A DNA stretch of 64,000 bases, taken from Gammaproteobacteria bacterium. Lineage in GTDB: Bacteria > Pseudomonadota > Gammaproteobacteria > Eutrophobiales > Eutrophobiaceae. Made by a program: the position numbers and the translations under genes. The DNA is taken from assembly GCA_965200295.1 (NCBI GenBank), contig OZ241347.1:3244639-3308638 (forward strand), given 5' to 3'. The first letter of the stretch is position 1; each line of letters begins with the position of its first letter. The notes beneath the pieces are model-generated. The model was not told the origin of the DNA, did not search any database, and saw nothing but the letters and a program-made list of their open reading frames with translations. Positions 12,001 to 64,000 of this stretch are shown here, one piece after another.

Positions 12001-12622
12001 CACCGTGCAGGCCGAGACCGTGCGCACCGTGCGGGTGGGGGTAGCCGCCGGGGGCAGTCTGTCGGCCTTAGCCGCTCTGCCGGGCTTAACACTCACCCCA
12101 TCGCTGGCCGCACACCTGCGTGAAGACGCCGGCGACGGCCCGTCCGGGCGCGCCCTGGAGCTGGCCGGGGGGATAGACGCCGGGCATGGCCTGTGGCGTT
12201 TAACGCTCAAAGGGCGCGTATTGGCGATGCACAGTGAGGCGGCCTATCGTGAACAGGGCGCTGCGGCTACTTTAGCCCGCGGCCAGCCCGGCCAGTTAGG
12301 GCCGTCGCTCAGTGTCAGCGCCCGCTGGGGGGATAATGCCGGGGGTGGGAACACCTTGTGGGCTGAGCGGTTGCACTACCGCCGCGGTCAGACCGTCCGC
12401 CCGGCCTGGACTCTCGACACGCACGCCGGGTACGGCTGGCGTCTGCGTGGGGGCACTGAGCTGCTCGGCGCTGTGCGCGTCAGTCACGACGGCGCCGGCG
12501 CCGATGCCTTGCTGACCCTCGAGCTGCGCCCTGGCCTGGCATTGCGGGTTGCGCGCGCGGGGGCGGTTGAGACGTCCCGCCCGGCGCCCACCACACCGGC
12601 GCCTACCACAGCGGAGCCTTGA
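2..12622 (+). CDS. Giant repeat-rich surface/adhesin-like protein, 5'-truncated by the window edge. Contains Calx-beta-like, Ig-like and FN3 modules, a Gly/Pro/acidic linker and an autotransporter-like C-terminal beta-domain.
   Basis: A single 12.6-kb open frame that stays open back to base 2. Recurrent '...EGxxxxFTVxLxxxxxxxVTVxYxTxxGTAxxGxDY'-type Calx-beta-like modules. Five 294-bp Ig-like units. An FN3-like segment (PAAPTGLTATPGNARVFLNWTNP...YSFQIRALD). The C-terminal ~520 aa has alternating beta-strand-like motifs (RWTLWGQG, GYLGLDTALG, LSVSARWG). Confidence 0.85.
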   Translation, partial: TGDITVTGGAKGALTDGTDNYELSVTPTGDADVVITVAANAATDGVNTGPAGDVTATATWIPPGVTTAQPADRTVTEGDTSDTATFTVALATEPSSAVAVTVTAPAGLELDGPDSSTAFSSSETLSFATNAWSTPQTVRVRATDDSADSPRGRQLAVTYAATSSDGGYSGLTGTAATVTVIDDDATEVTLAGADGNVEEGDTKEFTLTLNRGLVNGEALPVPLNFGGAATRGTDYTTACPSPLPDGVTCNNLNTATTPTVTFTGPSTGATATSVTLTLSATGDSMEEGSETVTIGLGALDANSGSGLGGGASGSGSLDFSITDPNRAPTVDKALPDRQAPVGQAFSYQFPADAFTDADGDTLDYTATRGDGTALPTWLTFTEATRTFSGTPQSGNAGTLTVRVTADDGNGGTVQDTFTLVVAAAAATVSLGIDFPPLEGFDNNAEVKVSLSPTLSAEVEVYLSATDVTATKGDDYAAGTQTGPDGTTGLYKVTLAANTASATLSIALTNDTLLEGEETFTVAVADIVSTSVIGRAAPLTIAIGDDEHPFVASAYEVVVSEESGSREGSYTLRLYAEPTAEVTVAVVPAPSGVATAAPASLTFTADDWNVARTVTVTALDDDIVNPLNSTFGARGRLTEIRPTGTSDDGRFEGLARATAIFVNDDDTAGLAFTPAALTVPEGGSNTYTVALTSEPSATVTVAVAGASGEVTFDTGPADGVQTTPLTFTTDTWNTPQTVTVLAADDADTTNDSATLTHTASGGDYASVTGDLEVTVTDDDSPSVTLAVSAASITEGGTALTLTATRSEANASGAALEFPIRVKAAGTTAQPADYTLGAASISIPNNMSSGTTTFTAIDDNADEPAETVVVELHTPPSGTELGTATEVAITITDNDATAVTLSGDNFRVSEGRNDKTFTVALGRGLEAGEALTVPLTIAGTATRGTDYTLSCDSAIGVSCEDLNNTAMNNNPRVVFTGPDAGATAASVTLRVAAVDDGIWETNGETVDIGPGTPTGTGLGGGVAAPADNLPVFRILDPYGLVFTPAAINMNEGATVNYTVALSREPNLAVTVTVASDDSDVTFDTDSGMAGSQNTLGFTTSDWATGKTVTVSAAQDDDTADDSATLTHTGSGTGSLYEGVTGDLMVTVNDADADGVTVAETGGGTAVTEGGGDEDTFTVVLDTPPGGPAEVFAAAASGVELEGPDPNLDFSASERIGFSRQTGNPGGWDGPRTVRVRATAASENGTDAPGSRTAVEVTFTTNELGAGTAYDDLDVPALSVDVIDNDPTSVTLARTGGTGLVAEGGTATLTVTLGRDLIAGETVTAPLTVSGTGVTPGDYTLILASGGSLNNGVTLNAGSPYTAAQPAVVFTGSDTGTQQVATLTLTAATDGDANETLSIGFGSVTSNLDRADASTSGTGGTSTAGAPVAITVGTVDTAAPTATLTNVPAKINDRTPFTATVTFNEPVTGFIAGDITVAGGAKGAFTPVSTTEYTLVVTPAGGADVVVTVLADSATDGNSNTGPAAAVVETAVWDATAPTLDITGLPDKINDRTARTVTFTFSEAVTGFATGDVSVSGGAKGAFAGDDGDTEYTLLVTPAGSADIVVTVAANAATDGVNTGPASQQAETAEWDTTAPTLSITGLPDKINDRTARTVTFTFSEAVTGFATGDVTVSGGVKGAFTGGDGDTEYTLLVTPNDGADVTVTVAANAATDGANTGPASQQSETAEWDATTPTLAISGLPEKINDRTVRTVTFTFSEAVTGFATGDVSVSGGVKGAFTGGDGDTEYTLLVTPNDGADVTVTVAANAATDGANTAPASQQSETAEWDATAPTLEISGLPASIDSTAALTATFTFSEAVTGFAADDITVAGGTAGVFASTSATVYTLMVTPAGSANVVVTVRADAATDGLNTGPASAEEAAAAWEPPAAPTGLTATPGNARVFLNWTNPSDSDIDKYQVRQGTGTTVTWGEWTDIGSSTATTIAHTVTGLTNGTAYSFQIRALDGTAESTESNTAVATPAAALVFTPASLNVNEGMDRTYTVALASRPTGGVTVTVASDNTDVTVDTNSVMAGDQNTLSFSTTSWGTAQTVTVAAAQDVDTTNDTATLSHSATGGGYGSVTGDVTVTVTDDDSPSVTLSASAASITEGGTALTLTATRSAANTSGATLNFPIRVKTADTTAQGNDYTALAANIGILNNASTGTATFAVTDDNVDEPPETVVVELHTPPSGTVLGATREVEITLTDNDATAVTLSVPDASAAEGSSTDRATLRLSLDRALRAGESLGIPLAFTGGAVGTDFTLALSGSPTGVALSGSTVTFTGSGGGSATSADILLSASADADGTDETVTVGIPAASSGTPPILAAASLDGGATGRRTGDGQIVLSDTTPVVSFATSSGTVAENGGTRNVALSISPAPTATITVNYTVTGSATEDADFSITGSGTVTVAATAGSVNIPVVVTDDNADESAETVILTLSSGTGYAVGSANVHTLTLTDNDTPALVFSAPSLTVDEGSSATYMVKLATLPTGSVTVTVASDNTDVTVDTDTGTNGNQNTMSFSTTTWNTAQTVTVAAAQDDDTTNDTATLSHSATGGGYNSVTGNVAVTVTDDDSPSVTLSVSAASITEGGTVLTLTATRSEANTSGATLNFPIRVKTADTTAQGNDYTALAGSIGIANNDSSGTTTFAVTDDSNDEPPETVVIELHTPPSGTVLGATREVEITITDNDATTVTLAGAAGNVAEGDTKTFTVTLGRALVSGESLPVPLTFAGTATRNTDYTSACATATGVACQDLNNVAQGNNPRVTFTGPSANAVTLTLSATADNTAETGDETVDIDLGTLNANSGTGLGGGASGSTTLATFSITDPSALPVLTLSGGAAVTEGAAASFTVTAVPTPTSTLIINRNIADAPGADFLADTDEGDNDFWVFSSGQSSRTFTISTVADSVDEPSGPVTVTLRPRPSEYTLGAPASATVTVNDDDGDTTPVVSFAAGTGTVAENGGTRNVALSISPAPTATITVNYTVSGTAGSSDFSITGSGTVTVAATATSVNIPVAVTDDNADESAETVILTLSSGTGYTVGSTNVHTLTLTDNDTPALVFSAPSLTVDEGSSATYTVKLATEPTGSVTVTVASDNTDVTVDTDTGTNGNQSTLSFTTTTWDTAQTVTVAAGQDDDTTNDTATLTHSASGGGYNSVTGNVAVTVTDDDAPVVPVLTLRGGATVVEGSNAVFTVTASPAPASTLTINRNVADASGADFLAASVEGDTDTWRFPSGQTAQTFTIPTIGDSVDEPSGPITVTLRPRAGSYTLGTPATATVTVSDDDSGGDPEPDPTPDLDDNGGGGGGGGGGGGGGGGNPDPTPEPETEPEPEPDPTPAPDSDPTPGPLTLTLTVGGPGHTVAPAAPGAMASADSLVLALAPPPVTDRPGNTDDSGQGDAAGVTPAAPRRSSYQVRLGARPTGPVTLIPISSDPAVLAVGGPVRITPDEWTVPQRITLTPLAAGWVSITHRIRGGGYDGQSLPEVIVRVGDGGVDLRKTQSFDSDPAATAAGIVAPDPDGDDNGEGANADTEEGATDSGSDDGATDPEDGTADTDASDGTTDGEGATPAGDGDAGATDAEDTGTAGQTLDTEDGDGEGAAADADDADADAATPDTDTGVAENDLTPTTQAAPPAPPAPLPTGVLATLARGHLDSAHAVLGRRFTAGTNESERLTLAGRTLSLGALLGRDGPGGMSGATFNPDTLAPPYPGGLSWREATGRCVSWTTVACGTDVSSDPATPASGQAGLWETLVYQLLTGQLRGAGLNADALWRDSGFALTLGGSDAPGVAPTRRWTLWGQGHVHTLTGVAGSSVLDTALRTGYLGLDTALGESGRVGLALSQGDDASALRTVHPYLSWSHGALRVSALGGIGRSTGRSATRTGWESYREAGLGHRVTPRFDTVAGDALASAQADSAHGDTLSHHLTAQPLRLHLGRVDIARPLGALGGMTFDARADAAWAHLARTDEAGHTVQAETVRTVRVGVAAGGSLSALAALPGLTLTPSLAAHLREDAGDGPSGRALELAGGIDAGHGLWRLTLKGRVLAMHSEAAYREQGAAATLARGQPGQLGPSLSVSARWGDNAGGGNTLWAERLHYRRGQTVRPAWTLDTHAGYGWRLRGGTELLGAVRVSHDGAGADALLTLELRPGLALRVARAGAVETSRPAPTTPAPTTAEP

Positions 12623-12623
12623 C

Positions 12624-14504
12624 ATGACGATACTCATTGAGCCCCCCGCCCGGGACGCCCCGGCGAGCGCCGAGACCCCCTACCGCTTAAACGTCGGGCA
12701 GACCCTGCGCGGCGCCCTGTCTGACCGCAGTGACGAAGACCGGGTGGGCATTGACCTGCAGGCCGGGCAGACTTATACCCTCACCTTACACGGCATCGGC
12801 CCTAACCCGGTGAGCGATACTGTGCTGCGGGTGTATAACGCCGAGGGCGCCCAGGTGGCGCTCAATGACGATGCGGATGTGACCACCCGGCAGTTGTACT
12901 CGCAGCTGACCTTCACCCCGGACAGTGACGGGGTGTACTATCTCAGTGTGGCGGCTTATAGCGGCGTGGGGGCGACCGGGGGACGCTATGAGCTGCGCGT
13001 CTATGACGCCGCTAACGCCGCGCCCCGTACGGTGACCGGCACGGCCGGGGATGATGCGTTGTTAGCGGGCGGGCCGGGGGACGATACCTTACGGGGAGGC
13101 ATGGGGGACGATGTGCTGGTGGGTGGGCCGGGGGGCGATAGTCTCTCTGGCGGCCCGGGGCAGGACACGGCCTTTTATGGCTACGCCGGAGGTGGGGTGA
13201 CCGTGAACCTGACCACCGGGCAGGCCGAGGGCGCTGAGGCGCAGGGGGATGTCTTTGTGCCGGGGCCGCACACGGTCACGGATGTGTTAGGGCGCCCCCG
13301 GCGGTTGGTCGATATTGAGCATCTGCACGGCTCGGGCCATGCGGATGTGTTAACCGGCCATGCCTTAGCTAATACCTTACACGGCGATGCCGGGGAGGAT
13401 GTGCTGCATGGCGGGGCGGGCAATGACTGGCTCATTGGCGGGGCTGGGGGCGATGTCATTCACGGCGGGGTGGGCTTCGATACCGTGAGCTATGCCGGCT
13501 CCCCGGTGGGGGTGACGGTCAATCTGGCAGACGGCACGGGTACAGGCGGGGATGCACAGGGGGATACCTTCCCGGGCGTGAAGACGCTGCGGGCCACCGA
13601 TGCCGCCGGGCGCTTACAGCTCGTGCAGGTCTCTGACATTGAATACATAGACGGCTCGCCATACCCCGATACGCTGGTAGGAGACAGTGGCCCGAACCGG
13701 CTCGAAGGGCGCGGCGGGGATGACACCTTGCACGGCGGCGGCGGGGATGACTGGCTGGTCGGGGAGGCCGGGGGCGATGTCCTGCACGGCGGGGCGGGAG
13801 ACGATACCGCCTCGTACCGCAGCTCACCGGCGGGCGTGGTGGTGCGGCTGCACAGTGGGCAGGCGCGCGGTGGGGATGCTGAAGGGGATGCCTTCGCGCT
13901 GACGGACACTATAACGGTCACGGGTGAAGACGGCGCCACTATGACTGTCGCCGTGCCGGATATTGAGCATCTGCACGGCTCGGGCCATGCCGATGTGCTG
14001 GCCGGGGACGGGCGGGATAATGTGCTCGACGGCGGGGCTGGGGATGACATCCTCTACGGCGGGCCGGACGGCGGGGATGATACGCTCTGGGGCGGCGTGG
14101 GTGATGACCGGCTGTTCGGGGGGTTAGGGGATGATACCTTACGCGGGGGCGCCGGGGACGATACCCTCTGGGGCGGGCCGGGCGACGATGTGCTCGACGG
14201 CGGGCGCACGGGGGATGATAGCCTCAACGGCGGAACCGGTAATGATACCTTCATCTTTGCCCCCGGTGCCGGGGCAGATACCGTGGTGGACTTCGGGCGC
14301 GGCGACAACCGGCTGGACCTGCGCGCCTTTGACAGCATTACCTCGTTGGAAGACCTCAACCTGCAACCCGGCCCGGACGGGCTGCGTATTACCCTCCCCG
14401 GCTATGACGGCGACAGCATTACCCTGGCCGATGTCGATGCCGATGCGCTCAGCGAAGCAGCGCTTATCTTTGCCGATGCCGATGCGGACGCCCTGATGGG
14501 TTAA
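12624..14504 (+). CDS. RTX-type calcium-binding repeat protein with an N-terminal pre-peptidase-C-terminal (PPC)-like domain
   Basis: Many GGxGxD nonapeptide repeats (GGPGDDTLRGGMGDDVLVGGPGGDSLSGGPGQD and others). The N-terminus YRLNVGQTLRGAL...YYLSVAAYSG..GRYELRVYD is PPC-like. The ATG lies 1 nt after the stop of the giant gene. Confidence 0.85.
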   Translation: MTILIEPPARDAPASAETPYRLNVGQTLRGALSDRSDEDRVGIDLQAGQTYTLTLHGIGPNPVSDTVLRVYNAEGAQVALNDDADVTTRQLYSQLTFTPDSDGVYYLSVAAYSGVGATGGRYELRVYDAANAAPRTVTGTAGDDALLAGGPGDDTLRGGMGDDVLVGGPGGDSLSGGPGQDTAFYGYAGGGVTVNLTTGQAEGAEAQGDVFVPGPHTVTDVLGRPRRLVDIEHLHGSGHADVLTGHALANTLHGDAGEDVLHGGAGNDWLIGGAGGDVIHGGVGFDTVSYAGSPVGVTVNLADGTGTGGDAQGDTFPGVKTLRATDAAGRLQLVQVSDIEYIDGSPYPDTLVGDSGPNRLEGRGGDDTLHGGGGDDWLVGEAGGDVLHGGAGDDTASYRSSPAGVVVRLHSGQARGGDAEGDAFALTDTITVTGEDGATMTVAVPDIEHLHGSGHADVLAGDGRDNVLDGGAGDDILYGGPDGGDDTLWGGVGDDRLFGGLGDDTLRGGAGDDTLWGGPGDDVLDGGRTGDDSLNGGTGNDTFIFAPGAGADTVVDFGRGDNRLDLRAFDSITSLEDLNLQPGPDGLRITLPGYDGDSITLADVDADALSEAALIFADADADALMG

Positions 14505-26637: not shown

Positions 26638-26816
26638 CCCTGCCTGTCATCCCCGAGCGCATCGTCCTTGGGCGCATCGTCTCCGGGTGCGTTATTACTG
26701 AGCGCATTGTCTTTGGGCGCGCATCCTTGGGCGCGGCTTGTACGCAATAACCTGATTGTGATAGCGTATATATAACAAACTGGTTTATATTTAGTTTTTT
26801 TTACTTTTTTGTTATA

Positions 26817-26967
26817 GGGAACCTCTAAAAATGCCCTCCGTGGCATTTTTAGAGACGGAAATGAAAAAATGTGATTTTTCATTTCCTTCATTTTCAGTCA
26901 CTTACGTGACTAAAAATGGCAGCATATCCTTATGCTGCACGGCCACCTCTAATTTTTAGAGGTGGCC
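26817..26967 (+). repeat. Five-hairpin MITE-like element, copy A
   Basis: gggaacctctaaaaatgccctccgtggcatttttagagacggaaatgaaaaaatgtgatttttcatttcc...ggccacctctaatttttagaggtggcc. The termini are inverted repeats of each other. Confidence 0.85.
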
Positions 26968-27025
26968 TATAGTTATGCACGCATTTTAATACGACAATCA
27001 TCGTTATCAATCGGATTCATCAGCT

Positions 27026-27559: not shown

Positions 27560-29464
27560 CTAAAGCAGTTCCCGGAAGACTGTAATATCTGCTGCGGCTT
27601 TCAGATTGTCGTTGTAGGCTTCCCAAGCGGCGGTGACCTGCGCTTGCAGTAGCTGAGCGCGCACTGCATCGGACTGTTCTTCCTCCAATGTATCGGGGTC
27701 AGCCGGGGTGACCGTATGGACAATGACAACGGCATAGTCCCCCGTGCCCATGGAAGCGCCTTCGTACACCGGGCCCGAGGCATCAGGTACGCCGGCCCGA
27801 AACGCGGTGCGCAGCACGGCCCGGTTGACGCTGTCGTCGTCTTGTGTGACAGCCTGCGCCGAATTCCAGTTCAGGGCGAACTCCAGAGCCAGATCGTCTT
27901 TTGACTCACCCTGTTGCAGCCGTTCCAGCAGCGTCTCCCCCTGCGTCCGGGTCTGGTCTCTGGCCTGCTCAAACTTCAAACGCGTAATAATTTCCGCGCG
28001 CACCTCAGCAAGCGGCTTCTTGAAACTGCTCAGGCGCTCGAGCAACCGCAATACGATATAGCGGTTGTTGTCCAGTTCGATCAGTTCACTGTTACTCTCT
28101 TCCAGCAACACTTCATCACTGAATGCCGCCGCGATGACGCCCGGTTCAGAGACAATGCCAGCGCCGGGGTCGGTCCGGGTCAGGTAATCACTGGTTTGTA
28201 TTGCCAACCCCAGTTCCTCCGCCGCTACTTCCAAGGTATCGGGGTTGGCAAAAGTCAGGTCTGACAGGCGGTCGGTCAGCTCGTAGAGTTGCTGTTCGGC
28301 CTTTTCCTGACGCAAGTCCTGCTCCACCTCGTCGCGCAGATTGTCCAGGTCGGCCTGCGCGCCACCCTGGATTTCATCCACCGCCATGATATGGAAGCCC
28401 AGCGGGGACGTTATCGGCTCACTGATGGCGCCACTGTCCATGGCAAACACCACCTGTTCCACTTCCGCTTCCATGACGCCCTTGCTGAGGAAGCCAAATT
28501 CACTGAACTCGACCGCGTTCTCATAGACGCCGGATTGATTGACCACGATGCTTTCCCAATCCTCGCCAGCCCGGACCCGTGCATACAGTTCGTTGGCTTT
28601 TGCCTGCATCTGCGCGCGCAGTTCATCCGTAGGCTCCTCGGGCAGCTTGACCAGGATCTGTCTTACTTTGCGGGTTTCCTCTACTTCGTAATTTTGCCTG
28701 TTCTCGGCGAACCAGGTTTCCAGTTCACCCTCTTCTAAGTAAACTTCTTCGGCGACTTTGGCCGCGGACAATACCAGGTAGGCGATTCTGACCCGTTCCG
28801 GTTCCAGGTAACGGCCCTCCTGTTCATAATAGGCTTGAATTTGCTCATCCGTAACCGTTACGGTTTCCTTGAGCTCGTCGGAAGACAACACGGTGTAGGA
28901 GAAATCACGAGTCTGGTGCAGCAGGCCCGCATACCCCGCCACTTCGGGCTGGGTCACGAAATCCGTAGCCAGCAGCGCGGTGCGCAGTTGTTCCACCGCC
29001 ATATCCTGCTTGATCCGACCCATAAATCCGGCCGGCGTCAGACCGCTCTGGCTTGCCGCGACTTCGAACCTCATCATGTTAAAGCCGTTGTCGTCGTTGA
29101 ACACGGGTATCTGCCGGATAACTTCCCAGGCCTCAGCGTCGCCCACCAGCAGCCCTGCCTTGTCTCCGGCCTGCTGCAACAACTGCACCCGAATCAGGTC
29201 TTCGGTGACCCGTTGTTTGAGCAACGGCTCAGTCTCCTCGGTCAGCGGCGCGCCGGATGCAGCCTGCCACTGCTGGCGCATATCCTGGTATGCGCGTTGA
29301 AAGTCAGCCAGGGTAACTTCCTCGCCATTCACCTCAAGCGCGACCACCCCACCCGACTGCTCGAAGTAATAGTTGATACCCCAGAATGCGAAGGGAATGA
29401 TCAGGATAGAAAAAATAACGACCGCCACCCAGCCTTTCAACTGGTCCCTTATCGCCTGTAACAT
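27560..29464 (-). CDS. ppiD: Periplasmic chaperone / peptidyl-prolyl isomerase PpiD
   Basis: N-terminus MLQAIRDQLKGWVAVVIFSILIIPFAFWG with a parvulin-like middle segment. The ORF-track extension to 29704 runs through two tRNA genes, so the ATG at 29464 is used. Confidence 0.85.
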   Translation of the reverse strand: MLQAIRDQLKGWVAVVIFSILIIPFAFWGINYYFEQSGGVVALEVNGEEVTLADFQRAYQDMRQQWQAASGAPLTEETEPLLKQRVTEDLIRVQLLQQAGDKAGLLVGDAEAWEVIRQIPVFNDDNGFNMMRFEVAASQSGLTPAGFMGRIKQDMAVEQLRTALLATDFVTQPEVAGYAGLLHQTRDFSYTVLSSDELKETVTVTDEQIQAYYEQEGRYLEPERVRIAYLVLSAAKVAEEVYLEEGELETWFAENRQNYEVEETRKVRQILVKLPEEPTDELRAQMQAKANELYARVRAGEDWESIVVNQSGVYENAVEFSEFGFLSKGVMEAEVEQVVFAMDSGAISEPITSPLGFHIMAVDEIQGGAQADLDNLRDEVEQDLRQEKAEQQLYELTDRLSDLTFANPDTLEVAAEELGLAIQTSDYLTRTDPGAGIVSEPGVIAAAFSDEVLLEESNSELIELDNNRYIVLRLLERLSSFKKPLAEVRAEIITRLKFEQARDQTRTQGETLLERLQQGESKDDLALEFALNWNSAQAVTQDDDSVNRAVLRTAFRAGVPDASGPVYEGASMGTGDYAVVIVHTVTPADPDTLEEEQSDAVRAQLLQAQVTAAWEAYNDNLKAAADITVFRELL

Positions 29465-32825: not shown

Positions 32826-32870
32826 GGTTGCTGGTTGCCTGTAAGGAGATACATCTAAGGATTAGATATA

Positions 32871-33021
32871 GTAACCTCTAAAAATGCCCTCCGTGGCATT
32901 TTTAGAGACGGTAACGAAAAAATGCGATTTTTCGTTACCGTCATTTTCAAGCACTGACGTGCTTAAAAATGGCAGCATATCCATAATGCTGCACGGCCAC
33001 CTCTAATTTTTAGAGGTGGCC
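32871..33021 (+). repeat. Five-hairpin MITE-like element, copy B
   Basis: gtaacctctaaaaatgccctccgtggcatttttagagacggtaacgaaaaaatgcgatttttcgttacc...ggccacctctaatttttagaggtggcc. Confidence 0.85.
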
Positions 33022-33200
33022 ATATACCAAAAAAGCATAACAATAGCTTTTCTTATTATTGATTGGAATAGAAAGCATGGTTAAAATGCCGCCTTTTTAA
33101 CGGTTGCCCATGAGTATGGCCTTGGGCATACCTGTGGGCATAGCTGTAACCATACACAGTATTTTGCCCATACACAATTTTACCCACATACAATCTTACT

Positions 33201-34920: not shown

Positions 34921-35111
34921 GTTGTGCGTAGCGTCACTTGCAAACTTCCATCAGCGCCGTGGCGGAATATGGGCGCCCCTAAAAATTGGCGGCGCTTTTA
35001 GAGGTGGCCTTATTATATCATTTAGTTCTAAAAATAGCTAAAACTATCGCTTTTCAGTATAGATAATTAGCGTTAGAGTGACACCCTGTTTGCTTCGGAC
35101 ACGTTCCAGTC

Positions 35112-35897
35112 GTGGATTTTGCGTTTACATTTGCCGGTTTTGTGGTCGGCTTTGTCATTGGTCTTACCGGTGTGGGCGGCGGTTCCCTGATGACACCGGC
35201 GCTGGTGCTGATATTCGGCGTCAAGCCGGCAGTGGCGGTGGGCACAGACCTGTTGTACGCGGCGATTACCAAAGGGGGCGGGATTTTCCCTCACCACAGG
35301 CAAGGGACCATCGACTGGAGAGTCGTGCGGCTGTTGGCATCGGGCAGTATCCCGGCTACCTTGATCGCGCTGGTGGTGTTGAAAAAACTGGCCGCCATGG
35401 GCATCAACTATGAATCCATCATCACCTCCACGCTCAGCATCGCCCTGATTTTGACCTCCCTGGTGATCCTGTTCAAAAGCCAGTTGCAGTCTCTGGGCAA
35501 AGCCGAGCCGTTCCAGTTCATACGCATCATGCACAGACGGTTACGCGTGCCGATAACCATTCTGGCCGGGGTTATCATCGGCACCCTGGTCACTCTCTCT
35601 TCAGTCGGCGCCGGCGCCCTGGGCGCGGCTTTCCTGTTTTTTCTTTATCCCCGCTTCAACACCGTCAGGATCGTGGGCACCGATCTGGCTCATGCAGTGC
35701 CAATCACCGCAATCGCCGGCCTGGGTCACTGGCACCTGGGTTCGGTGGACTTCCAACTCCTGCTCAGCCTGATCATCGGATCGCTACCGGGTATCTACCT
35801 GGGCAGCCACGCCGGGGTACAGTTACCGGAAAAATTCATGCGCACGCTGCTTGCGCTGATGCTGCTGCTGATTGGCGGTCGCCTGGCAGTGGTATAA
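35112..35897 (+). CDS. TauE/SafE family sulfite/anion exporter-like membrane protein
   Basis: Polytopic protein with GVGGGSLMTPALV at the N-terminus and a repeated half-architecture. Confidence 0.8.
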   Translation: MDFAFTFAGFVVGFVIGLTGVGGGSLMTPALVLIFGVKPAVAVGTDLLYAAITKGGGIFPHHRQGTIDWRVVRLLASGSIPATLIALVVLKKLAAMGINYESIITSTLSIALILTSLVILFKSQLQSLGKAEPFQFIRIMHRRLRVPITILAGVIIGTLVTLSSVGAGALGAAFLFFLYPRFNTVRIVGTDLAHAVPITAIAGLGHWHLGSVDFQLLLSLIIGSLPGIYLGSHAGVQLPEKFMRTLLALMLLLIGGRLAVV

Positions 35898-35925
35898 AAA
35901 AACCCGCTCATGCGGGGTTTTTTTA
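35896..35925 (+). terminator. Rho-independent terminator
   Basis: aaaaaaacccgctcatgcggggttttttt lies immediately after the tauE-like stop. Confidence 0.8.
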
Positions 35926-35926
35926 C

Positions 35927-36077
35927 AGGTAACCTCTAAAAATGCCATCCGTGGCATTTTTAGAGACGGAAACGGAAAAATGCGATTTTCCGTTTCCTTC
36001 ATTTTCAAGCACTTACGTGCTTAAAAATGGCAGCATATCCTTATGCTGCACGGCCACCTCTAATTTTTAGAGGTGGC
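35927..36077 (+). repeat. Five-hairpin MITE-like element, copy C
   Basis: ggtaacctctaaaaatgccatccgtggcatttttagagacggaaacggaaaaatgcgattttccgtttcc...ggccacctctaatttttagaggtggcc. Confidence 0.85.
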
Positions 36078-36105
36078 CTATACATAAACACCAGCGCAGC
36101 AGACC

Positions 36106-36333
36106 TCAGCCGGTATGCGTCTGGCGGTATTGACTGATCATTGCCGCCATCTGGTCTTTGAGGTGCAGTTTTTCTTTTTTCAGGTTATCCAGAACATATC
36201 CATCCACGGGTGTTACGCCGGAATTGGCCTGGTTGACTTGTTGCTTCAATTCACCATGCTTTGAATGCAGTCGCTTAAAATTTTCGTTTTCGTTCAATAA
36301 TGCATCGACTATCTCCTGCTCATATTCAAACAT
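36106..36333 (-). CDS. DUF465/YdcH-like small coiled-coil protein
   Basis: 75 aa. LLNENENFKRLHSKHGELKQQV...LKKEKLHLKDQM pattern. Confidence 0.65.
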   Translation of the reverse strand: MFEYEQEIVDALLNENENFKRLHSKHGELKQQVNQANSGVTPVDGYVLDNLKKEKLHLKDQMAAMISQYRQTHTG

Positions 36334-36459
36334 AGAGGCCTCCTTCAGGTCAGGTTTTCAGGGTTTAAGCAATCTCTAATTTTTAGAGGTTACCTTATAG
36401 TGCCTACAGCCTTAAAGTTAGTCCAAATTTCCCCAGACTACAAGGAAAAAATTTTCTAT

Positions 36460-36609
36460 GGTAACCTCTAAAAATGCCCTCCGTGGCATTTTTAGACACG
36501 GAAACGGAAAAGTATGATTTTCCGTTTCCTTCATTTTCAATCACTTACGTGATTAAAAATGGCAGTATATCCCTATACTGCACGGGCATCTCTGATTTTT
36601 AGAGGTACC
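36460..36609 (+). repeat. Five-hairpin MITE-like element, copy D (most diverged)
   Basis: ggtaacctctaaaaatgccctccgtggcatttttagacacggaaacggaaaagtatgattttccgtttcc...gggcatctctgatttttagaggtaccc. Confidence 0.8.
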
Positions 36610-36623
36610 CTTATTATAAGCAC

Positions 36624-37562
36624 ATGCGCGCGGCAACGTTTATCAACATCGTGTTTTATCTGCTGTCTGCCTCAGGCGGACACCTTCATGCTACTGAAAA
36701 ACATGATAAAACGTTCAGCCTCACCGAGGTCAGCGCCGGTATTTACGTACACCAGGGCAAGCATGTGGGGCTGGAGCATGACCACAGCGACGATATTGCC
36801 AACATCGGCTTCATCGTCGGCGAGCAATGTATTGCCGTTATCGACACCGGCGGTTCGGTGGCTATTGGCCAGGCCTTGCAAAAAGCCATGCGTAGCGTCT
36901 CATCCCTGCCTGTTTGCTACGTGATCAATACCCATATACATTTTGACCATGTACTGGGAAACGCCGCTTTCAAGGCTGCTGAGCCGGTCTTCGTCGGGCA
37001 CGAAAACCTGGCGCTGGAAATGGCGCATAACCGCGCGTTTTTCCTGTCGGAGTTTCGCGCCAACCTCGGTGAAAATCCCTCGGCAGCCTCGATCATCGGC
37101 CCGGACCTCACCGTTGCCAATACGCTGGAACTGGATCTGGGCAACCGGATAATTACCCTGCGCGCTTACCCGCCCTCCCATTCCCATACGGATTTATCGG
37201 TGTATGACCATAACACTGCGACGTTATGGCTCTCTGACCTGCTGTTCGTGGACCGGATTCCCGCCCTCGACGGCAGTCTCAAAGGCTGGCTGGAGACGCT
37301 GGACCTGCTGACCGCACAGCCGGCCCGGCGCGTTATTCCCGGTCACGGCCCTGTCAGCCTGCCCTGGCCGGATGCAGCCGATGCCCAGGATACCTACCTG
37401 CGTATGTTGCTGGCCCGCACCAGAGAAGAAATCGCCAAGGGGGCATTCATGGAGGACATCATTGAGACCGTGGGTAACACAGAGAAAACCCAATGGCTGC
37501 TGCATGAGGAAAACCACCGACGCAACGTTACCCGGGCGTTTACTGAGTTAGAGTGGGAGTGA
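36624..37562 (+). CDS. Secreted MBL-fold metallo-hydrolase
   Basis: Signal-like N-terminus. THIHFDHVLG (HxHxDH) motif and a later HGP motif. Confidence 0.8.
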   Translation: MRAATFINIVFYLLSASGGHLHATEKHDKTFSLTEVSAGIYVHQGKHVGLEHDHSDDIANIGFIVGEQCIAVIDTGGSVAIGQALQKAMRSVSSLPVCYVINTHIHFDHVLGNAAFKAAEPVFVGHENLALEMAHNRAFFLSEFRANLGENPSAASIIGPDLTVANTLELDLGNRIITLRAYPPSHSHTDLSVYDHNTATLWLSDLLFVDRIPALDGSLKGWLETLDLLTAQPARRVIPGHGPVSLPWPDAADAQDTYLRMLLARTREEIAKGAFMEDIIETVGNTEKTQWLLHEENHRRNVTRAFTELEWE

Positions 37563-37573
37563 AATAGTACCGG

Positions 37574-37679
37574 AAGAAGTCGGCATGGTCTCGTCAGGAT
37601 GGTCGCCAGCCGGGATGGCTGGCGCAAAGCGTACCGGCACGTATTCACAGCGCTCCTGACGAAACCATGCCGACTTCTT
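37574..37679. repeat. Long-arm inverted repeat (26-nt arms, 1 mismatch) between convergent genes
   Basis: Arms aagaagtcggcatggtctcgtcagga and tcctgacgaaaccatgccgacttctt. There is an internal cgccagcc/ggctggcg hairpin. Confidence 0.8.
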
Positions 37680-41861: not shown

Positions 41862-41927
41862 AATTGTATTCCTCGTTGGTACGCCGGATGTTAGTACTAA
41901 TGGTAACCTCTAATTTTTAGAGGCGCC

Positions 41928-42509
41928 CTAATGGTCCATGGTCAGGCGCTCGCTCAGTTTTTCAACTTCGGAGTCAGCCCTGCTCTGTAACCCGACACTG
42001 ATAAAGTAACCGGACAACGCCGCCACCATACCGGACATGGTCGGCACTGTTGCCTGCGACACGCCGGCGGCCATGGCCCGGGCATTGCCGGTACCCAGGA
42101 ACGCCATCACCTCAAACACGGTAACCATGCCGGTCACCGTGCCAAGCAAGCCGACCAGCGGGCACAGCGCGACACAGACTTTGATCGTGCCGAGGAACTG
42201 GTTGGCCTGAATCCTGACATCCGAGATCATGGCCTCCCGTACCCGATGTGCGTTCCAGGAGACTCTTTCTGCGCGTGCATCCCAGCGTTTGATTGCGTCC
42301 CTGGACAGGCGCCACTGTTGTGTGGAAAAGAAAATCAGCCGTTCCACGATGCACAACCACATAATGGCCAGCACCACCGCCACCAGGTACAGCACCGGCC
42401 CGCCCAGTTCCAGGAAGTCACGAATGGCTTCCCACATGTTGATGAAGCCCTGTTCCAGGCCCACCAGCGAGGTGATACCGCGCAGGATTGAATAGATAAG
42501 ATCAGTCAT
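41928..42509 (-). CDS. exbB: MotA/TolQ/ExbB proton-channel protein
   Basis: GLLGTVTGMV and ATVPTMSGMVAA motifs. The start is set at MTDLIYS to avoid overlap with the upstream gene. Confidence 0.85.
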   Translation of the reverse strand: MTDLIYSILRGITSLVGLEQGFINMWEAIRDFLELGGPVLYLVAVVLAIMWLCIVERLIFFSTQQWRLSRDAIKRWDARAERVSWNAHRVREAMISDVRIQANQFLGTIKVCVALCPLVGLLGTVTGMVTVFEVMAFLGTGNARAMAAGVSQATVPTMSGMVAALSGYFISVGLQSRADSEVEKLSERLTMDH

Positions 42510-44827: not shown

Positions 44828-44977
44828 GGCCACCTCTAAAAATTAGAGGTGGCCGTGCAGCATAGGGATGTGCTGCCATTTTTAAGCACGTAAGAGCTTG
44901 AAAATGAAGGAAACGGAAAATCGCACTTTTCCGTTTCCGTCTCTAAAAATGCCACGGAGGGCATTTTTAGAGGTTCC
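44828..44977 (-). repeat. Five-hairpin MITE-like element, copy E (inverted orientation)
   Basis: ggccacctctaaaaattagaggtggccgtgcagcatagggatgtgctgcc...tctaaaaatgccacggagggcatttttagaggttccc. Confidence 0.85.
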
Positions 44978-45022
44978 CATCCGGGAATTGCGTAAAGTGT
45001 GCGTGTGTGCGATTCTGCCTTA

Positions 45023-48372: not shown

Positions 48373-48607
48373 GACATTAACTAAAAATACCGGCAGACTC
48401 GTCCTGCCTGTCCACAAGATGGAGCTTGTTACGAACTCATCACATTTTGCTGGACAACACCGGCACAGGAAGCGCCGGGGCAGCGCCGGAATTGCCATGA
48501 CCGGCGGCGCCGCGTTCGCCCGGGAGTCCGACAGGAGGTCGTACTGCCGGGTGACTTTAGGGAACCTGATTTTTAGAAATGCCCTTTAGCGGCGCCCCTG
48601 AAAATGC

Positions 48608-49931: not shown

Positions 49932-50660
49932 GGCCACCTCTAAAAATTAGAGGTGGCCGTGCAGCATAGGGATATGCTGCCATTTTTAAGCACGTAAGTG
50001 CTTGAAAATGACAAATCGTCAGGATAGACGATTTGCAAACTACATCCGTGTAGTTTGCCCCGATGGGGCCAGCTGCGCTGTCCAAATTCGTTCCGGACGA
50101 ATTTGTGCAAACTACATCCGTGTAGTTTGCCCCGATGGGGCCAGCTGCGCTGTCCAAATTCGTTCCGGACGAATTTGTGCAAACTACATCCGTGTAGTTT
50201 GCCCCGATGGGGCCAGCTGCGCTGTCCAAATTCGTTCCGGACGAATTTGTGCAAACTACATCCGTGTAGTTTGCCCCGATGGGGCCAGCTGCGCTGTCCA
50301 AATTCGTTCCGGACGAATTTGTGCAAACTACATCCGTGTAGTTTGCCCCGATGGGGCCAGCTGCGCTGTCCAAATTCGTTCCGGACGAATTTGTGCAAAC
50401 TACATCCGTGTAGTTTGCCCCGATGGGGCCAGCTGCGCTGTCCAAATTCGTTCCGGACGAATTTGTGCAAACTACATCCGTGTAGTTTGCCCCAATGGGG
50501 CCAGCTGCGCTGTCCAAATTCGTTCCGGACGAATTTGTGCACAGCGATAGCTGCCCGTAGGGTTGCGTCCACGGATGGACGCAATGAGGGAAATAAAAAA
50601 TCACACTTTTTCATTTCCGTCTCTGCTTATGTGCCACGGAGGGCATTTTTAGAGGTTCCC
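49932..50660 (-). repeat. Five-hairpin MITE-like element, copy F, split by a ~530-bp hairpin-module insertion
   Basis: The left part (49932-50009) matches hairpins 5-3 of copy E. The right part (about 50586-50660) matches hairpins 2-1. Confidence 0.85.
50036..50539. repeat. Tandem array of 7 x 72 bp, near-identical units
   Basis: The unit is caaactacatccgtgtagtttgccccgatggggccagctgcgctgtccaaattcgttccggacgaatttgtg. The period was verified at 50041/50113/50185/... . Only unit 7 differs, by one base (ccccaatgggg). Confidence 0.95.
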
Positions 50661-53173: not shown

Positions 53174-53722
53174 ATGGCAGCCCTGATTGACACCCTGCAG
53201 CGGGACCACAAGAACTATGCGCAACTGCTGAGCCTGTTGAGCAGGGAGGCGGACAAACTGGATGCGGGAGACGCGCCTGATTTTGTCCTTATGTATGACA
53301 TAATGAATTACATGGTCAATTATCCGGACCTCCACCACCACCCCCATGAAGAACTCATCTTTGAGGTTCTGGGCGCGCTGGACCCGGACTGCTTGGCCGA
53401 TGTGGGCAGACTGACCGAGGAACACCAGCAACAGGCTGCAACAGGGCTGGCCCTCAAGGACTCGCTGGATGCGGTGGTCAACGGCGCCATTGTTCCCTTA
53501 GACAGCATCCTGCGCCGCACCAGAGCCTACATCGATTTGTTTCGCCGCCACATAAGCCTGGAACAAGGGAGTGTTTTTCCCAAGGCTAAAGCCACCTTGG
53601 AGGACTCGGAGTGGCAACTGATCAACGATAAAATTTCCCAGGTGGAGGATCCGTTGTTCGGTGAGGTGGCGCTCGGCCAGTACCGGAAACTCTACGAGGG
53701 TATCGTTCGTGGTAACCTCTAA
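53174..53722 (+). CDS. Hemerythrin-like metal-binding domain protein
   Basis: DHKNYAQLL..., HHHPHEELIF and H..LE motifs. The stop codon lies inside a 20-nt fragment of the MITE terminus (ggtaacctctaaaaatg). Confidence 0.7.
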   Translation: MAALIDTLQRDHKNYAQLLSLLSREADKLDAGDAPDFVLMYDIMNYMVNYPDLHHHPHEELIFEVLGALDPDCLADVGRLTEEHQQQAATGLALKDSLDAVVNGAIVPLDSILRRTRAYIDLFRRHISLEQGSVFPKAKATLEDSEWQLINDKISQVEDPLFGEVALGQYRKLYEGIVRGNL

Positions 53723-53752
53723 AAATGTCCTCATAACACCAACGCCTGAGGC

Positions 53753-63278: not shown

Positions 63279-63290
63279 TGTACCGTCTTA

Positions 63291-64000
63291 TTATTCGCCA
63301 CCGAGAGCGTGGTGAGAGATAGAAGTTGACATCATTTCAAGAGCGTTGAGATGACGATTGCTAGTTTGCTGAAATGATTCCACTTTTTTTGAGCGCAACT
63401 GATATTCAATTTGAAGCGACAAGGGAGGTATTGGAATCTCAAGACTTCTCAATATCTTTGGATTCAAAAAAGAGAATGCCTTTTCTTTGCTGTTTGCAGC
63501 TAATGTAGTCAACCGATGAGGCAGGTAAGTAAATAATGCTACAAAATACTCGCCCAACAGAGACTCTGGATTAAACACCACGCGAACAAGATTCGTGCCG
63601 ATTATCGACCTGCTAACAGTAGGTCTGGCAACACACATCCGTCCTACAGTCCCAGCACGCGATATTAAAATATCGCCTGTCAAAACGTGATAACGATGTA
63701 GCTGCTCGAATTTTTCATCGCTAATGAACAGTTTCGGTTCGTTTACAAAACTGTTAATTTGGATATTGTCAATTCCCCATACTGGCACTCCTCGACTGAG
63801 ATACTCATATTTTTTCAGAGATGCGCCGAATGGGCCAGATTGGACCCCATTACGTTGGTTACTCAAATGATTTTGAATTTTATCAATCTTGAAATTATTA
63901 GGGTTTTTTACCGGGTCGCCAAACATCTCTACAAAAACCGATTTCAGTAGGCTATCGGTTAGCTCAATAATTTGTTTCCGTTTCCGGCGAATACCCTCGG
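63291..64000 (-). CDS. hsdS: Type I restriction-modification specificity subunit HsdS (3' portion; the N-terminus lies beyond the window)
   Basis: FGDPVKNP motif, a target-recognition-domain-like middle and the conserved C-terminal IPIPPLSLQ helix region. The frame stays open upstream to the window edge. Confidence 0.8.
   Translation of the reverse strand, partial: EGIRRKRKQIIELTDSLLKSVFVEMFGDPVKNPNNFKIDKIQNHLSNQRNGVQSGPFGASLKKYEYLSRGVPVWGIDNIQINSFVNEPKLFISDEKFEQLHRYHVLTGDILISRAGTVGRMCVARPTVSRSIIGTNLVRVVFNPESLLGEYFVALFTYLPHRLTTLAANSKEKAFSFLNPKILRSLEIPIPPLSLQIEYQLRSKKVESFQQTSNRHLNALEMMSTSISHHALGGE

Follow-up and report, generated by a model that had tools for sequence, protein, structure and literature searches.

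A mobile DNA repeat of 151 bases and five hairpins dispersed through a sponge-associated bacterial genome

What kind of sequence is the short, hairpin-rich repeat that recurs between the genes of this stretch of DNA (the window, 64,000 nucleotides), and why is its interior kept? Our analysis identifies a mobile DNA repeat of 151 bases, built of five hairpins and dispersed through a sponge-associated bacterial genome. The element is a MITE, a non-autonomous DNA transposon of ~151 bp, and represents what is apparently a new structural variant of the poorly understood 'TwoAYGGAY' repeat family. On balance, the reading that we favor is that of a MITE carrying, as its conserved cargo, a structured module that shows CsrA/RsmA-type GGA loops.

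Copies of the repeat and their five hairpins

The window contains six full copies and five fragments of the element within 27 kb, and all of the copies are intergenic. We keep the orientation of an earlier note on this DNA, in which the + strand of the copy under study (copy C) carries UCC loops; the GGA-loop strand of copy C is the '-' strand. Alignment confirmed all six full copies that had been placed previously. Their places were right, but the best-fitting ends of copies B, C, D and E differ by 1 nt from those given before. Copy C occupies 35928..36078 (+). Copy A (26817..26967, +) lies between SDF symporter and MarR genes, both on the + strand, and copy B (32870..33021, +) lies between divergent rhodanese and cysH genes. 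Copy D (36460..36610, +), the most diverged full copy within the window, has a DUF465 gene (-) and a metallo-beta-lactamase-fold gene (+) as neighbors, while copy E (44828..44978, -) is found between divergent DUF3450 and APH genes. These five unsplit copies can be aligned over ~151 bp with a mean column identity of 89%. The sixth copy (49932..50660, -), known previously as split, is a full element plus an insert: the 3' arm of its first hairpin (H1) is mutated, and a nested element lies between its second and third hairpins (H2 and H3).

The predicted fold of copy C consists of exactly five consecutive hairpins (H1 35934-35965, H2 35968-35997, H3 36000-36029, H4 36030-36049 and H5 36052-36078), as had been described. 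Its energy is -78 kcal/mol versus -31.6 for shuffled sequences (z = -12.5), and the opposite strand folds equally well (z = -12.9). H1 consists of the left end and an inverted copy of that end's inner half, onto which it folds back, with a small GCC/GGC hairpin mid-way, and H5 is the palindrome of the right end. In H2 and H3 the pairing is kept and the sequence is free, and we regard these two hairpins as spacers within a conserved five-hairpin module. The loops of H1 and H4 are conserved while their stems change. Read on the GGA strand, the H3 loops are mostly GNRA-like (GUAA, GUGA, GCAA).

Every stem variant quoted in the earlier note for hairpins 2, 3 and 4 is correct, and the compensatory changes exceed both shuffle and slide controls. 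In a near-identical set of 19 copies, drawn from the window plus other sources, 8 pairs and 25 cells have changed on both sides; none of 500 shuffles reaches this level, and slid controls give 0-2. The signal becomes overwhelming once divergent relatives are added. Changes on both sides are then observed in 44 of 56 pairs, and 93.8% of cells are paired compared to 37-48% when the partners are slid.

This covariation had been taken to imply selection on structure. The covariation itself is real, but part of it may have another source. Copies that are >90% identical show flips of G:C to C:G and of A:U to U:A, without mismatched intermediates (pairs 130/153 and 44/69), and in copy L036 the H1 loop has been turned round while its stem is otherwise unaltered, as is classically seen when a template switch crosses a palindrome. 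The G:C to C:G flips without intermediates, together with the inverted loop, suggest that hairpin-templated correction at the DNA level contributes to the covariation.

The same flips and inverted loop are what would be expected of purely selfish palindromic DNA, whose hairpins matter as DNA (cruciform or single-stranded, in transposition or replication), whose 'compensatory' changes are made by templated repair, and whose loops bind the transposase or a host DNA-binding protein. Such an element would also fold equally well on either strand, and its H1 and H5 would be made of the terminal repeats themselves, as they are here. Nor is there strand asymmetry in the mismatch counts: the divergent set contains ~15 G.U pairs in the earlier note's orientation versus ~14 A.C pairs, which equal G.U on the opposite strand. 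Copy E does contain, as reported before, a pair that is tolerated on one strand only, namely a C.A mismatch in H4 that reads as G.U on the opposite strand. It also has a T.T mismatch in H3 that the earlier note did not record. The single T-G pair of copy E gives no strand identity, and the overall G.U and A.C counts are balanced. However, palindrome correction leaves unexplained why the number, order, length and loops of the five hairpins are kept across relatives in which the stems and the G+C content (42% versus 65%) differ completely. We consider a purely selfish element rather unlikely, while granting it an appreciable chance; further evidence against it is given below.

Ends, target-site duplications and movement

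The earlier description of the repeat as MITE-like with inverted termini is borne out. The terminal inverted repeats are 16 bp long and imperfect (left RGKAACCTCTAAAAAT, right GGSYRCCTCTAAAAAT, read inward), with 14 of the 16 positions complementary, and the window contains the terminal motif CCTCTAAAAAT 21 times versus 0.43 expected. To this we add a target-site duplication of 4 bp, which is perfect in 15 of 21 copies and matches at 3 of 4 positions in four more. The duplicated target is A/T-rich and differs from copy to copy. By permutation, the mean number of perfect duplications is 1.6 and the maximum 9 in 100,000, none reaching 15. Copy A is flanked by TATA at 26813-26816 and 26968-26971, copy B by ATAT, copy E by GGAT and the split copy by TTCA; the flanking 4-mers are TACA and TATA for copy C (3/4 match) and CTAT and TTAT for copy D.

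The fragments preserve the ends of the element to varying degrees. Four of them are present where they had been reported, and the fifth, formerly placed at about 48559-48600, is confined to 48560..48584 (+). This last is a degenerate minimal element, GGGAACCTGATTTTTAGAAATGCCC, with a TTTA duplication at 48556-48559 and 48585-48588. At 41902..41928 (+), the left and right terminal repeats are fused into a 27-bp palindrome with a TAAT duplication, as would be left if a full copy lost the DNA between its ACCTCTAA direct repeats. A minimal element with a short GC-rich center, GGGCGCCCCTAAAAAT-TGGCGGCGC-TTTTAGAGGTGGCC, lies at 34971..35009 (+), and a minimal or degenerate terminal-repeat palindrome, GGTAACCTCTAAAAATTAGAGATT, lies between copies C and D at 36371..36396 (-). 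The remaining fragment is a solo left terminal repeat (GGTAACCTCTAAAAATG..., truncated) at 53711..53728 (+), between the hemerythrin and ccoN genes. Mini forms of this kind may arise by recombination among the four internal copies of the terminal repeat. Because target duplications also flank minimal elements that lack hairpins 1-4, the inner hairpins are dispensable for insertion, which counts against hairpins that matter only as selfish DNA.

The insert within the split copy is itself a smaller hairpin element (50012..50582, -) with a TCAT(T) duplication on its flanks. In strain L087 this nested element is 67 bp long, whereas here it holds a tandem array of a 72-bp unit repeated 7.1 times (50034-50541). 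The number of array units appears to vary by strain, being 0, at least 1, or 7. Each unit contains three hairpins, with the loops ACGGAU, UCCGGA and AUCG on the '-' strand, and so presents two GGA loops.

The element is mobile. At the copy B site, three other assemblies of the same species carry a 43-bp mini element consisting of the left end, the AYGGAY hairpin and the right end, framed by the same duplication, and strains appear to differ at two insertion sites, although the collapse of short reads in assembly may contribute to these differences. The repeat is also not genome-specific, as had been thought: copies that are 88-97% identical occur in other gammaproteobacterial MAGs and in metagenome contigs, and these matches cover the elements without extending into their flanks. 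Exact-match look-ups of window proteins recovered no wholly empty insertion site; short-read contigs of the species repeatedly break off inside elements.

These features place the repeat among known MITEs without equating it with any of them. Bacterial MITEs are about 100-200 bp long and non-coding, have terminal inverted repeats and target duplications, and give rise to deletion derivatives. Like Correia/NEMIS (Neisseria), ERIC (enterobacteria), RUP and BOX (pneumococcus) and the Tn3-derived TIMEs, the window element is a small intergenic sequence that is present in multiple copies, encodes no protein and has inverted repeats and a duplication. It shares its modularity with BOX, in which the number of inner units is variable. 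However, it has no sequence similarity to Correia, ERIC, RUP, BOX or TIMEs, and its duplication is 4 bp, whereas Correia and ERIC duplicate TA and TIMEs 5 bp. Its interior, in contrast to that of known MITEs, is not a single long foldback but five separate hairpins, and it is conserved by covariation even among highly divergent relatives, unusually for the interior of a MITE.

The enzyme responsible for movement would be a DDE-type transposase encoded elsewhere, given the inverted ends and the fixed length of the duplication. The 'GG' ends and the 4 bp lead us to guess at a parent of the IS5 group, with IS701 and IS1380 as other candidates. Neither the window nor about 100 kb of related loci yielded an autonomous parent that combines these ends with a transposase. 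Inverted end pairs at a suitable spacing were not found in the window or the gammaproteobacterial loci, and no transposase domain was detected among the window ORFs scanned against Pfam. Comparison with the plasmid collection and with the viral contigs brought up no match to the element.

The earlier note had suggested a cognate transposase of the TnpA-REP/RAYT or IS200/IS605 type. None was found in the window or the related loci, and the duplication and inverted repeats disfavor both. Single-strand transposition of the HUH type is not known to duplicate its target or to depend on inverted repeats at the ends. REPs are single palindromes of 20-40 nt with a conserved GTAG-type foot and without terminal repeats or target duplication. 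The window element resembles REP/BIME/REPIN sequences as an abundant intergenic palindrome, a class that can form arrays and affect transcripts, but differs from them in possessing both inverted repeats and a duplication. A REPIN-like element, mobilized through its single-stranded hairpins by a RAYT (TnpA-REP, an HUH tyrosine transposase) or by an enzyme of the IS200/IS605 type, would be hairpin-rich, multi-copy and intergenic, as this one is. However, terminal inverted repeats and target duplication are consistent features of the element, no conserved GTAG-type tetranucleotide is present at the feet of its hairpins, and no RAYT-like gene was found among the window ORFs scanned against Pfam. 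We judge a REPIN-like origin highly improbable, even though a preprint (10.64898/2026.09.22.753630) links REP arrays to TwoAYGGAY in Pseudomonas fluorescens SBW25.

We saw no coding constraint on the element, its variable columns being distributed 18/18/13 over the three codon positions. A 42-codon ORF (MPSVAFLETETEK...) does extend from ATG to stop across copies C and D and is open in most near-identical copies, and a small protein encoded by it was considered. This candidate was rejected, and we give it practically no chance: there are frameshifts in wB, L036 and L066 and an in-frame stop in L067, codon positions show no bias, and the changes occur as base-paired couples.

Relatives of the element and the AYGGAY hairpin

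The five-hairpin layout also occurs, with unrelated stem sequences, in MAGs of Pseudomonadales and Gemmatimonadales. A search with a covariance model of the near-identical copies recovers full-length relatives with unrelated stems (L050, L062, L063, L035, L032 and L030), and one divergent relative keeps the layout at 65% GC. In the Pseudomonadales type, a CTAG duplication fits two of three copies. In Bacillota copies of TwoAYGGAY, the conserved region runs past an inverted repeat of ~50 nt. The element has relatives in several phyla. That its interior is held by covariation across relatives of unrelated sequence argues that the cargo does something.

On the GGA strand, H1 is the AYGGAY hairpin known from two Rfam families, TwoAYGGAY and TD-2, a likeness missed by the earlier note. 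The TwoAYGGAY motif corresponds to Rfam RF01731 (Weinberg et al. 2010, PMC2864571), and TD-2 (Rfam RF03162) was described together with TD-1 as a motif of Treponema denticola (Weinberg et al. 2007, PMC1950547). H1 reads AAAAAUGCC-ACGGAU-GGCAUUUUU (24 nt) and is identical to the first hairpin of an RF01731 match in a Bacillota locus (L038). This match, which serves as a positive control, scores 53.2 bits against a gathering score of 43 and has H1 on its GGA-reading strand. The same 24-nt hairpin, again on the GGA strand, lies inside an RF03162 match in a Treponema MAG (L009), at a locus with three TD-2 matches. The UGCC/GGCA base of the H1 stem forms part of the RF01731 family consensus. When covariance model R1 was compared with the Treponema TD-2 locus, only the H1 part matched, at 31.5 bits.

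Rfam returned two tRNAs only over the window at gathering score. RF01731 gave no window match at gathering score, at E<=10 over 28.5 kb, or at E<=10 on a 176-nt slice; the window copies miss this model because their layout differs. The sole meaningful match at E<=10 was rsmX, below threshold (24 bits, E = 1.1), over H1 of copy C, and RF01731 belongs to Rfam clan CL00106 together with rsmX.

The element and TwoAYGGAY are alike in being multi-copy, intergenic and multi-hairpin, with GGA in terminal loops. The canonical GGA hairpins, however, are adjacent on a common basal stem, whereas those of the window element are the first and fourth of five, separated by two others and not gathered under one basal stem. 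Pairing of the terminal repeats into a basal stem is conceivable, but the predicted fold favors local H1 and H5. The H1 loop varies among ACGGAU, ACGGAG, CAGGAU and UAGGAU, and the H4 loop reads AAGGAU or AGGGAU, or AUGGAU in copy B, such that GGA is always present and strict AYGGAY is found in some copies only. The second loop is therefore usually ARGGAU rather than AYGGAY. The window element further differs in its demonstrated terminal inverted repeats and 4-bp target duplication. With TD-2 it shares the 24-nt hairpin and the character of multi-copy, covarying, modular hairpin motifs, while the remaining sequence and layout are different. The earlier note had allowed that the element might belong to a known family with a described function. 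Known relatives do exist in TwoAYGGAY and TD-2, but a described function does not come with them.

TwoAYGGAY loops have been proposed as CsrA sites (PMC4333381). A preprint of September 2026 likewise proposes them for Csr/Rsm binding, calls TwoAYGGAY "mobile-element-like", reports that its copy number varies enormously, and leaves the link between mobility and regulation open (10.64898/2026.09.22.753630). The same preprint describes a 'Minerva-extended' Pseudomonadota form with extra hairpins, a long basal stem and copy-number variation. The terms 'inverted repeat', 'target site duplication' and 'MITE' do not occur in the main text of that preprint.

GGA loops as candidate CsrA sites

The loops of H1 and H4 read CA(C/G)GGAUG on the GGA strand, giving two such loops per element. 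Schubert and colleagues reportedly defined in 2007 the CsrA/RsmA-RsmE recognition motif as (A/U)CANGGANG(U/A), and we take the CA(C/G)GGAUG loops of H1 and H4 to be this motif. The fit of the loops to a well-defined RNA-binding consensus weighs against purely selfish DNA, as does the choice of the GGA strand as the RNA strand by the curators of two independent Rfam families.

Transcription of the GGA strand, which is probably the functional one, would give each copy two high-affinity CsrA sites. The copies could then jointly act as a dispersed CsrA sponge, or they could put neighboring mRNAs under CsrA control, and the nested array of 7 x 72 bp, in which every unit has two GGA loops, would amount to a CsrB-like concentrate. 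The two GGA loops of an element are ~95 nt apart, which exceeds the optimal spacing reported for one CsrA dimer bridging two sites. The window and the related loci contained no csrA gene, and we assume its presence in the genome. A promoter scan revealed none that was consistent in or beside the element, and the window contains no relevant GacA/UvrY box (TGTAAGN6CTTACA). With CsrB and CsrC, and with RsmX, RsmY and RsmZ, the element shares a series of hairpins with A(N)GGA in their loops, a likeness that extends to the array. However, each of these sponge RNAs is the product of a single-copy gene, which has a GacA/UvrY-dependent promoter and a terminator of its own, whereas the repeat in the window is mobile and dispersed, its stems are long (8-13 bp), and a copy has only two GGA loops.

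The intergenic position of all copies would equally suit a REP/BIME-like or ERIC-like accessory that acts as a bidirectional terminator, an insulator or a stabilizer of mRNA 3' ends, with the GGA loops being incidental. A simple terminator pattern is seen at H2 followed by UUCAUUUUCA on one strand and at H4 followed by CAUUUUUAAG on the other, with 7 terminator-pattern sites versus 1.0 expected in 35800-36700, and A5 and U5 flank H1. Copies A and C and the split copy lie downstream of genes. However, the genes on either side of copies B, D and E are transcribed divergently, which leaves no obvious role for a terminator, and copy C is preceded by a separate, better terminator at 35895-35925. 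Termination would, moreover, require neither five hairpins nor conserved loops. We regard an accessory role of this kind as unlikely.

A further alternative is that the UCC strand is the functional RNA, its pyrimidine-rich loops (AUCCGU, AUCCUU) mimicking the anti-Shine-Dalgarno sequence and pairing with the ribosome-binding sites of mRNAs; the UCC loops would be complementary to sites of the AGGA type. Where neighboring genes run in the same direction, seven of nine copies are oriented for read-through transcripts carrying UCC loops, an orientation bias that is not significant and derives from crude ORF calls. On this strand the H3 loops read UNNC, which is no known stable loop class, versus GNRA-like on the GGA strand, and the related Rfam families are modeled on the GGA strand. 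The nested array carries its GGA loops on the UCC strand of its host copy, which makes the orientation logic inconsistent. A functional UCC-strand RNA is in our estimate very unlikely.

The reading that we favor remains a MITE with a structured, GGA-looped module as conserved cargo. TwoAYGGAY (2010) and TD-2 (2007) have been orphan structured-RNA motifs, and the window adds an anatomy for one TwoAYGGAY branch: inverted repeats, a 4-bp duplication, deletion derivatives, a nested insertion and apparent strain polymorphism. In practical terms, the repeats break short-read assemblies of this sponge-associated lineage at every copy. We also put forward, tentatively and as a real possibility rather than the expected outcome, that a single MITE superfamily, ancient and spread across phyla, may have as its cargo TwoAYGGAY and TD-2, along with related orphan RNA motifs, and so carry ready-made CsrA/RsmA-binding hairpins from place to place in genomes. 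With every insertion a transcript or a dispersed sponge would then gain a CsrA site, and tandem amplification of hairpin modules within a copy, as seen in the 7 x 72-bp array, would be a route for the birth of CsrB-like sponge RNAs. If the GGA loops bind CsrA, the repeat would by its movement distribute binding sites for a global post-transcriptional regulator and would be a bacterial counterpart of the regulatory sites borne by eukaryotic transposons.

Copies of the element and their ends

The five unsplit copies in the window (A, 26817-26967; B, 32870-33021; C, 35928-36078; and D, 36460-36610, plus strand; E, 44828-44978, minus strand) align end to end across ~151 bp with a mean column identity of 89%. 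The sixth copy named in the earlier note (49932-50660, minus strand) is a full element interrupted by an insert. All five fragments it listed were located (starting at 34971, 36371, 41902, 48560, and 53711), and each stem variant it quoted is correct. The window holds 21 occurrences of the terminal motif CCTCTAAAAAT, versus 0.43 expected. As the earlier note described for the element, the predicted fold of copy C contains exactly five consecutive hairpins (-78 kcal/mol, with shuffles at -31.6; z = -12.5). The complementary strand folds equally well (z = -12.9). A 42-codon ORF running through copies C and D was rejected as a protein gene due to frameshifts or a stop in other copies; its variable sites are spread 18/18/13 over the codon positions.

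Every copy is intergenic, and the surrounding genes are housekeeping in nature (SDF symporter, MarR, rhodanese, CysH, LysR, TauE, metallo-beta-lactamase-fold, DUF3450, APH, and Na/H exchanger). Just downstream of copy B and directly upstream of cysH, a 16-bp unit (CCATACACAATTTTAC) is present three times (33150-33199) and could be a set of regulator-binding sites. Elsewhere in the window, an ORF of >4,200 codons that runs off the window start (17-14504) contains Big_12, Calx-beta, and fn3 repeats and 294-bp tandem repeats (4.8 units), followed by an RTX calcium-binding protein (12549-14504). The ORF has ~70% G+C, against ~57% elsewhere in the window. It has the appearance of a giant adhesin and may have been acquired horizontally. 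The low G+C segment at 60661-63926 (46-51%) encodes an AAA_15/AAA_21/DUF3696 ATPase, a 310-aa protein without a Pfam match, and a type I restriction-modification specificity (HsdS) fragment, and looks like a small defence island.

With the element bounded by RGKAACCTCTAAAAAT and ATTTTTAGAGGYRSCC, 15 of the 21 copies compared, from the window and elsewhere, have identical 4-base flanks, and four more agree at three of four positions. The duplicated tetramers vary by copy (TATA, ATAT, TAAT, TTCA, GGAT, TTAA, ATGA, TGTA, TTGA, and others). When the flanks were re-paired at random, 1.6 perfect matches were obtained on average, and none of 100,000 trials gave 15. The inverted ends and this duplication bear out the earlier description of the element as MITE-like: it moved as DNA, and we file it as a MITE, a transposon derivative. 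Inverted ends together with a duplication of fixed length are the hallmark of a DDE-type transposase making staggered cuts, and because of these features we infer such an enzyme, which would act on the element in trans. No transposase was found in the window or in the related loci examined. The GG ends and 4-bp duplication are, we presume, reminiscent of the IS5 group. The 'solo hairpins' of the earlier note are minimal elements composed of left and right ends only, with their own duplications (TAAT at 41902, TTTA at 48560), and would be the expected remnants of deletion between the internal direct repeats ACCTCTAA.

Relatives in other genomes and changes in the stems

Scanning one genome per species with the 24-nt core of hairpin 1, with one wildcard, returned at least 59 loci. 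Several gammaproteobacterial MAGs and ten metagenome contigs carry full five-hairpin copies 88-97% identical to those in the window, with flanks that have no similarity to it. The element is therefore not specific to this genome, contrary to what had been claimed. A covariance model trained on 19 near-identical copies also recovers full-length relatives with entirely different stem sequences: locus L050 (65% G+C), three copies in L063 and two in L062, a Pseudomonadales type (L032, L035, L052), and a Gemmatimonadales type (L030). When sequences were folded singly, RNAfold recovered the five-hairpin layout best in L050, and the majority of the hairpins in the remaining relatives.

Within the 19 near-identical copies, both sides changed at 8 of 56 pairs and in 25 cells, and pairing is kept in 98.2% of cells. 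In 500 shuffles, 8 pairs/25 cells was never reached, and sliding the partners by 1-3 columns left 0-2 such cells. The stem of hairpin 1 is nearly invariant, with no change at 11 of 13 pairs. Ten divergent representatives show both-side changes at 44 of 56 pairs, with 93.8% of cells paired versus 37-48% when slid; this alignment was fitted by the covariance model and is biased towards structure, a bias that the effect far exceeds. The compensatory stem changes reported between copies are thus confirmed. Several parts stay constant as the stems vary: the loop of hairpin 1 (NTCCGT, in the orientation of the earlier note), the loop of hairpin 4 (CA-TCC[C/T]-TG, same orientation), the inner part of hairpin 3, and the A-run at the terminal repeat's inner end. 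The interior of the element is constrained for both pairing and loop sequence.

The main rival explanation is that the hairpins may matter solely as DNA, the 'compensation' stemming from hairpin-templated repair. G:C to C:G flips without intermediates occur among copies >90% identical, and in locus L036 the loop of hairpin 1 is inverted within an unchanged stem, as would result from a template switch or an inversion across a palindrome. That copy (L036:2720-2869) has the loop ACGGAT in the earlier note's orientation and has lost its left terminal repeat. Such repair probably contributes to the stem changes, and the step from covariation to selection on structure calls for caution. A role solely as DNA, however, does not explain the fixed order, size, and loop sequence of the five hairpins among relatives whose stems are unrelated and whose G+C differs widely, nor the insertion of minimal elements that have no inner hairpins.

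GGA loops and known RNA motifs

On the GGA strand, opposite to that of the earlier note, hairpin 1 reads AAAAAUGCC-ACGGAU-GGCAUUUUU. Bacillota loci among the matches listed in the hairpin 1 scan match TwoAYGGAY (Rfam RF01731; 53.2 bits versus a gathering score of 43), and in the alignment the same 24-mer forms the motif's first AYGGAY hairpin. In a Treponema locus, a match to TD-2 (RF03162) covers the same hairpin. The RNA strand in both matches is the GGA-reading strand. Rfam clan CL00106 holds RF01731 and rsmX, and the sole clan-related sub-threshold match in the window is rsmX on hairpin 1 of copy C (24 bits, E = 1.1). The two conserved GGA-strand loops, CACGGAUG and CA(A/G)GGAUG-like, fit the RsmE/CsrA recognition consensus (A/U)CANGGANG(U/A) reportedly described by Schubert et al. 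in 2007. The loops of hairpin 3 on this strand are mostly GUAA, GUGA, or GCAA, weak support for RNA on the GGA strand.

TwoAYGGAY appears in Weinberg et al. among probable RNAs, with occurrences in human gut sequences, gamma-proteobacteria, and Clostridiales (PMC2864571), and the same group described TD-1 and TD-2 as modular multi-copy motifs of unknown function (PMC1950547); Gardner and Eldai suggested that TwoAYGGAY is an RNA that binds CsrA (PMC4333381). The window copies gave no match to RF01731 at any threshold tried. Whereas the GGA hairpins are adjacent in RF01731, they occupy positions 1 and 4 in the window copies, and the second loop is usually ARGGAU rather than AYGGAY. For these reasons we do not count the element as a member of RF01731, and we regard the element as a new structural variant in a wider group of AYGGAY-hairpin repeats. 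A September 2026 preprint (10.64898/2026.09.22.753630) describes Pseudomonadota TwoAYGGAY with a long basal stem, a pseudoknot, and three hairpins beyond the canonical ones, in up to 202 copies per genome, with divergent doublets and an association with repeat arrays. The terms 'inverted repeat', 'target site duplication', and 'MITE' are absent from its main text. The preprint's extended model may already cover the layout of the window element. For L035, of the Pseudomonadales type, what is predicted as a 'basal stem' is just the two terminal repeats pairing with each other.

Several observations concern other hairpins. In Bacillota loci (L002-L055, e.g. L038:1741-1890) the Rfam 'basal stem' of canonical TwoAYGGAY is a ~50-nt inverted repeat (TGTTTTAGTGTCAAATGACGCAATTAC...), outside which conservation extends; some copies have extra ~60-nt hairpin-module inserts in two different places, and one (L012) lies ~220 nt from a 5S rRNA gene. 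Two solo GGA/TCC-loop hairpins lie outside the element copies in the window (37604-37624 and 29276-29295), one (cgccagccGGGATggctggcg) between convergent MBL-fold and ETF-QO genes, the other being gcgcataTCCTGGtatgcgc. They may be single modules of the same kind, or chance.

We propose that the GGA strand would be transcribed and that its loops would bind CsrA, making the copies a dispersed sponge or placing neighbouring mRNAs under CsrA control. No csrA gene was found in the window or related loci searched, and scans found no consistent promoter in or beside the element and no GacA box in the window. Counts of G.U versus A.C show no strand asymmetry. In tandem gene contexts, the UCC strand and not the GGA strand would be in read-through RNA for 7 of 9 copies, which is not significant. 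Terminator-pattern matches lend some support to a role as terminator or insulator, one that is hard to square with copies in divergent promoter regions.

Strain differences and the nested array

Exact-protein look-ups placed the sponge-metagenome MAGs GCA_026710345.1, GCA_026709385.1, and GCA_026708925.1 in the same species as the window, along with many short metagenome contigs (98-99% nucleotide identity). These contigs very often terminate within an element, as expected of a high-copy repeat. In three independent assemblies, site B carries not the window's full 152 bp but a 43-bp mini element that joins the left end, the small AYGGAY hairpin, and the right end; its ATAT(A) flanks are the same as in the window. 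At the split copy, the nested insert of the same-species scaffold L087 is 67 bp long, with a TCAT(T) duplication on its flanks and zero 72-bp units, compared to at least one unit in L088 and seven in the window. Both sites probably differ between strains, with collapse by short-read assemblers a less likely source of the differences. No completely empty insertion site was recovered among the same-species assemblies and contigs compared. The same-species contig L089 (1-60) has a different sequence upstream of the split copy's 'TCATTTTCAAGCAC' junction (...gttgggtgcccac|tcattttcaag), which suggests either that this TCAT site holds another insert there or that the contig is chimeric.

What interrupts the split copy is another, smaller hairpin element, which carries a duplication of its own. 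Inside it, a three-hairpin 72-bp module is amplified seven-fold in this strain (7.1 units, 99% identity). The module occurs once in L017. In L024 (7043-7955), each unit of a 173-bp tandem array (5.3 units) contains it; where the array begins, a tRNA-like sequence (GGTTCGAATCCCTCTCTCTCCGCCA) has its 3' end, and this tRNA 3' end recurs in every unit. In the window, each 72-bp unit displays two loops, ACGGAU and UCCGGA, on the strand that runs in the direction of the ccoS-like and Na/H-exchanger genes flanking the array.

The finding holds up and goes beyond a private repeat: the element, while not categorically new, belongs to a MITE superfamily with conserved structured cargo that is tied to long-standing orphan RNA motifs. 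If the CsrA proposal is true, the 72-bp array would be the window's strongest candidate sponge.
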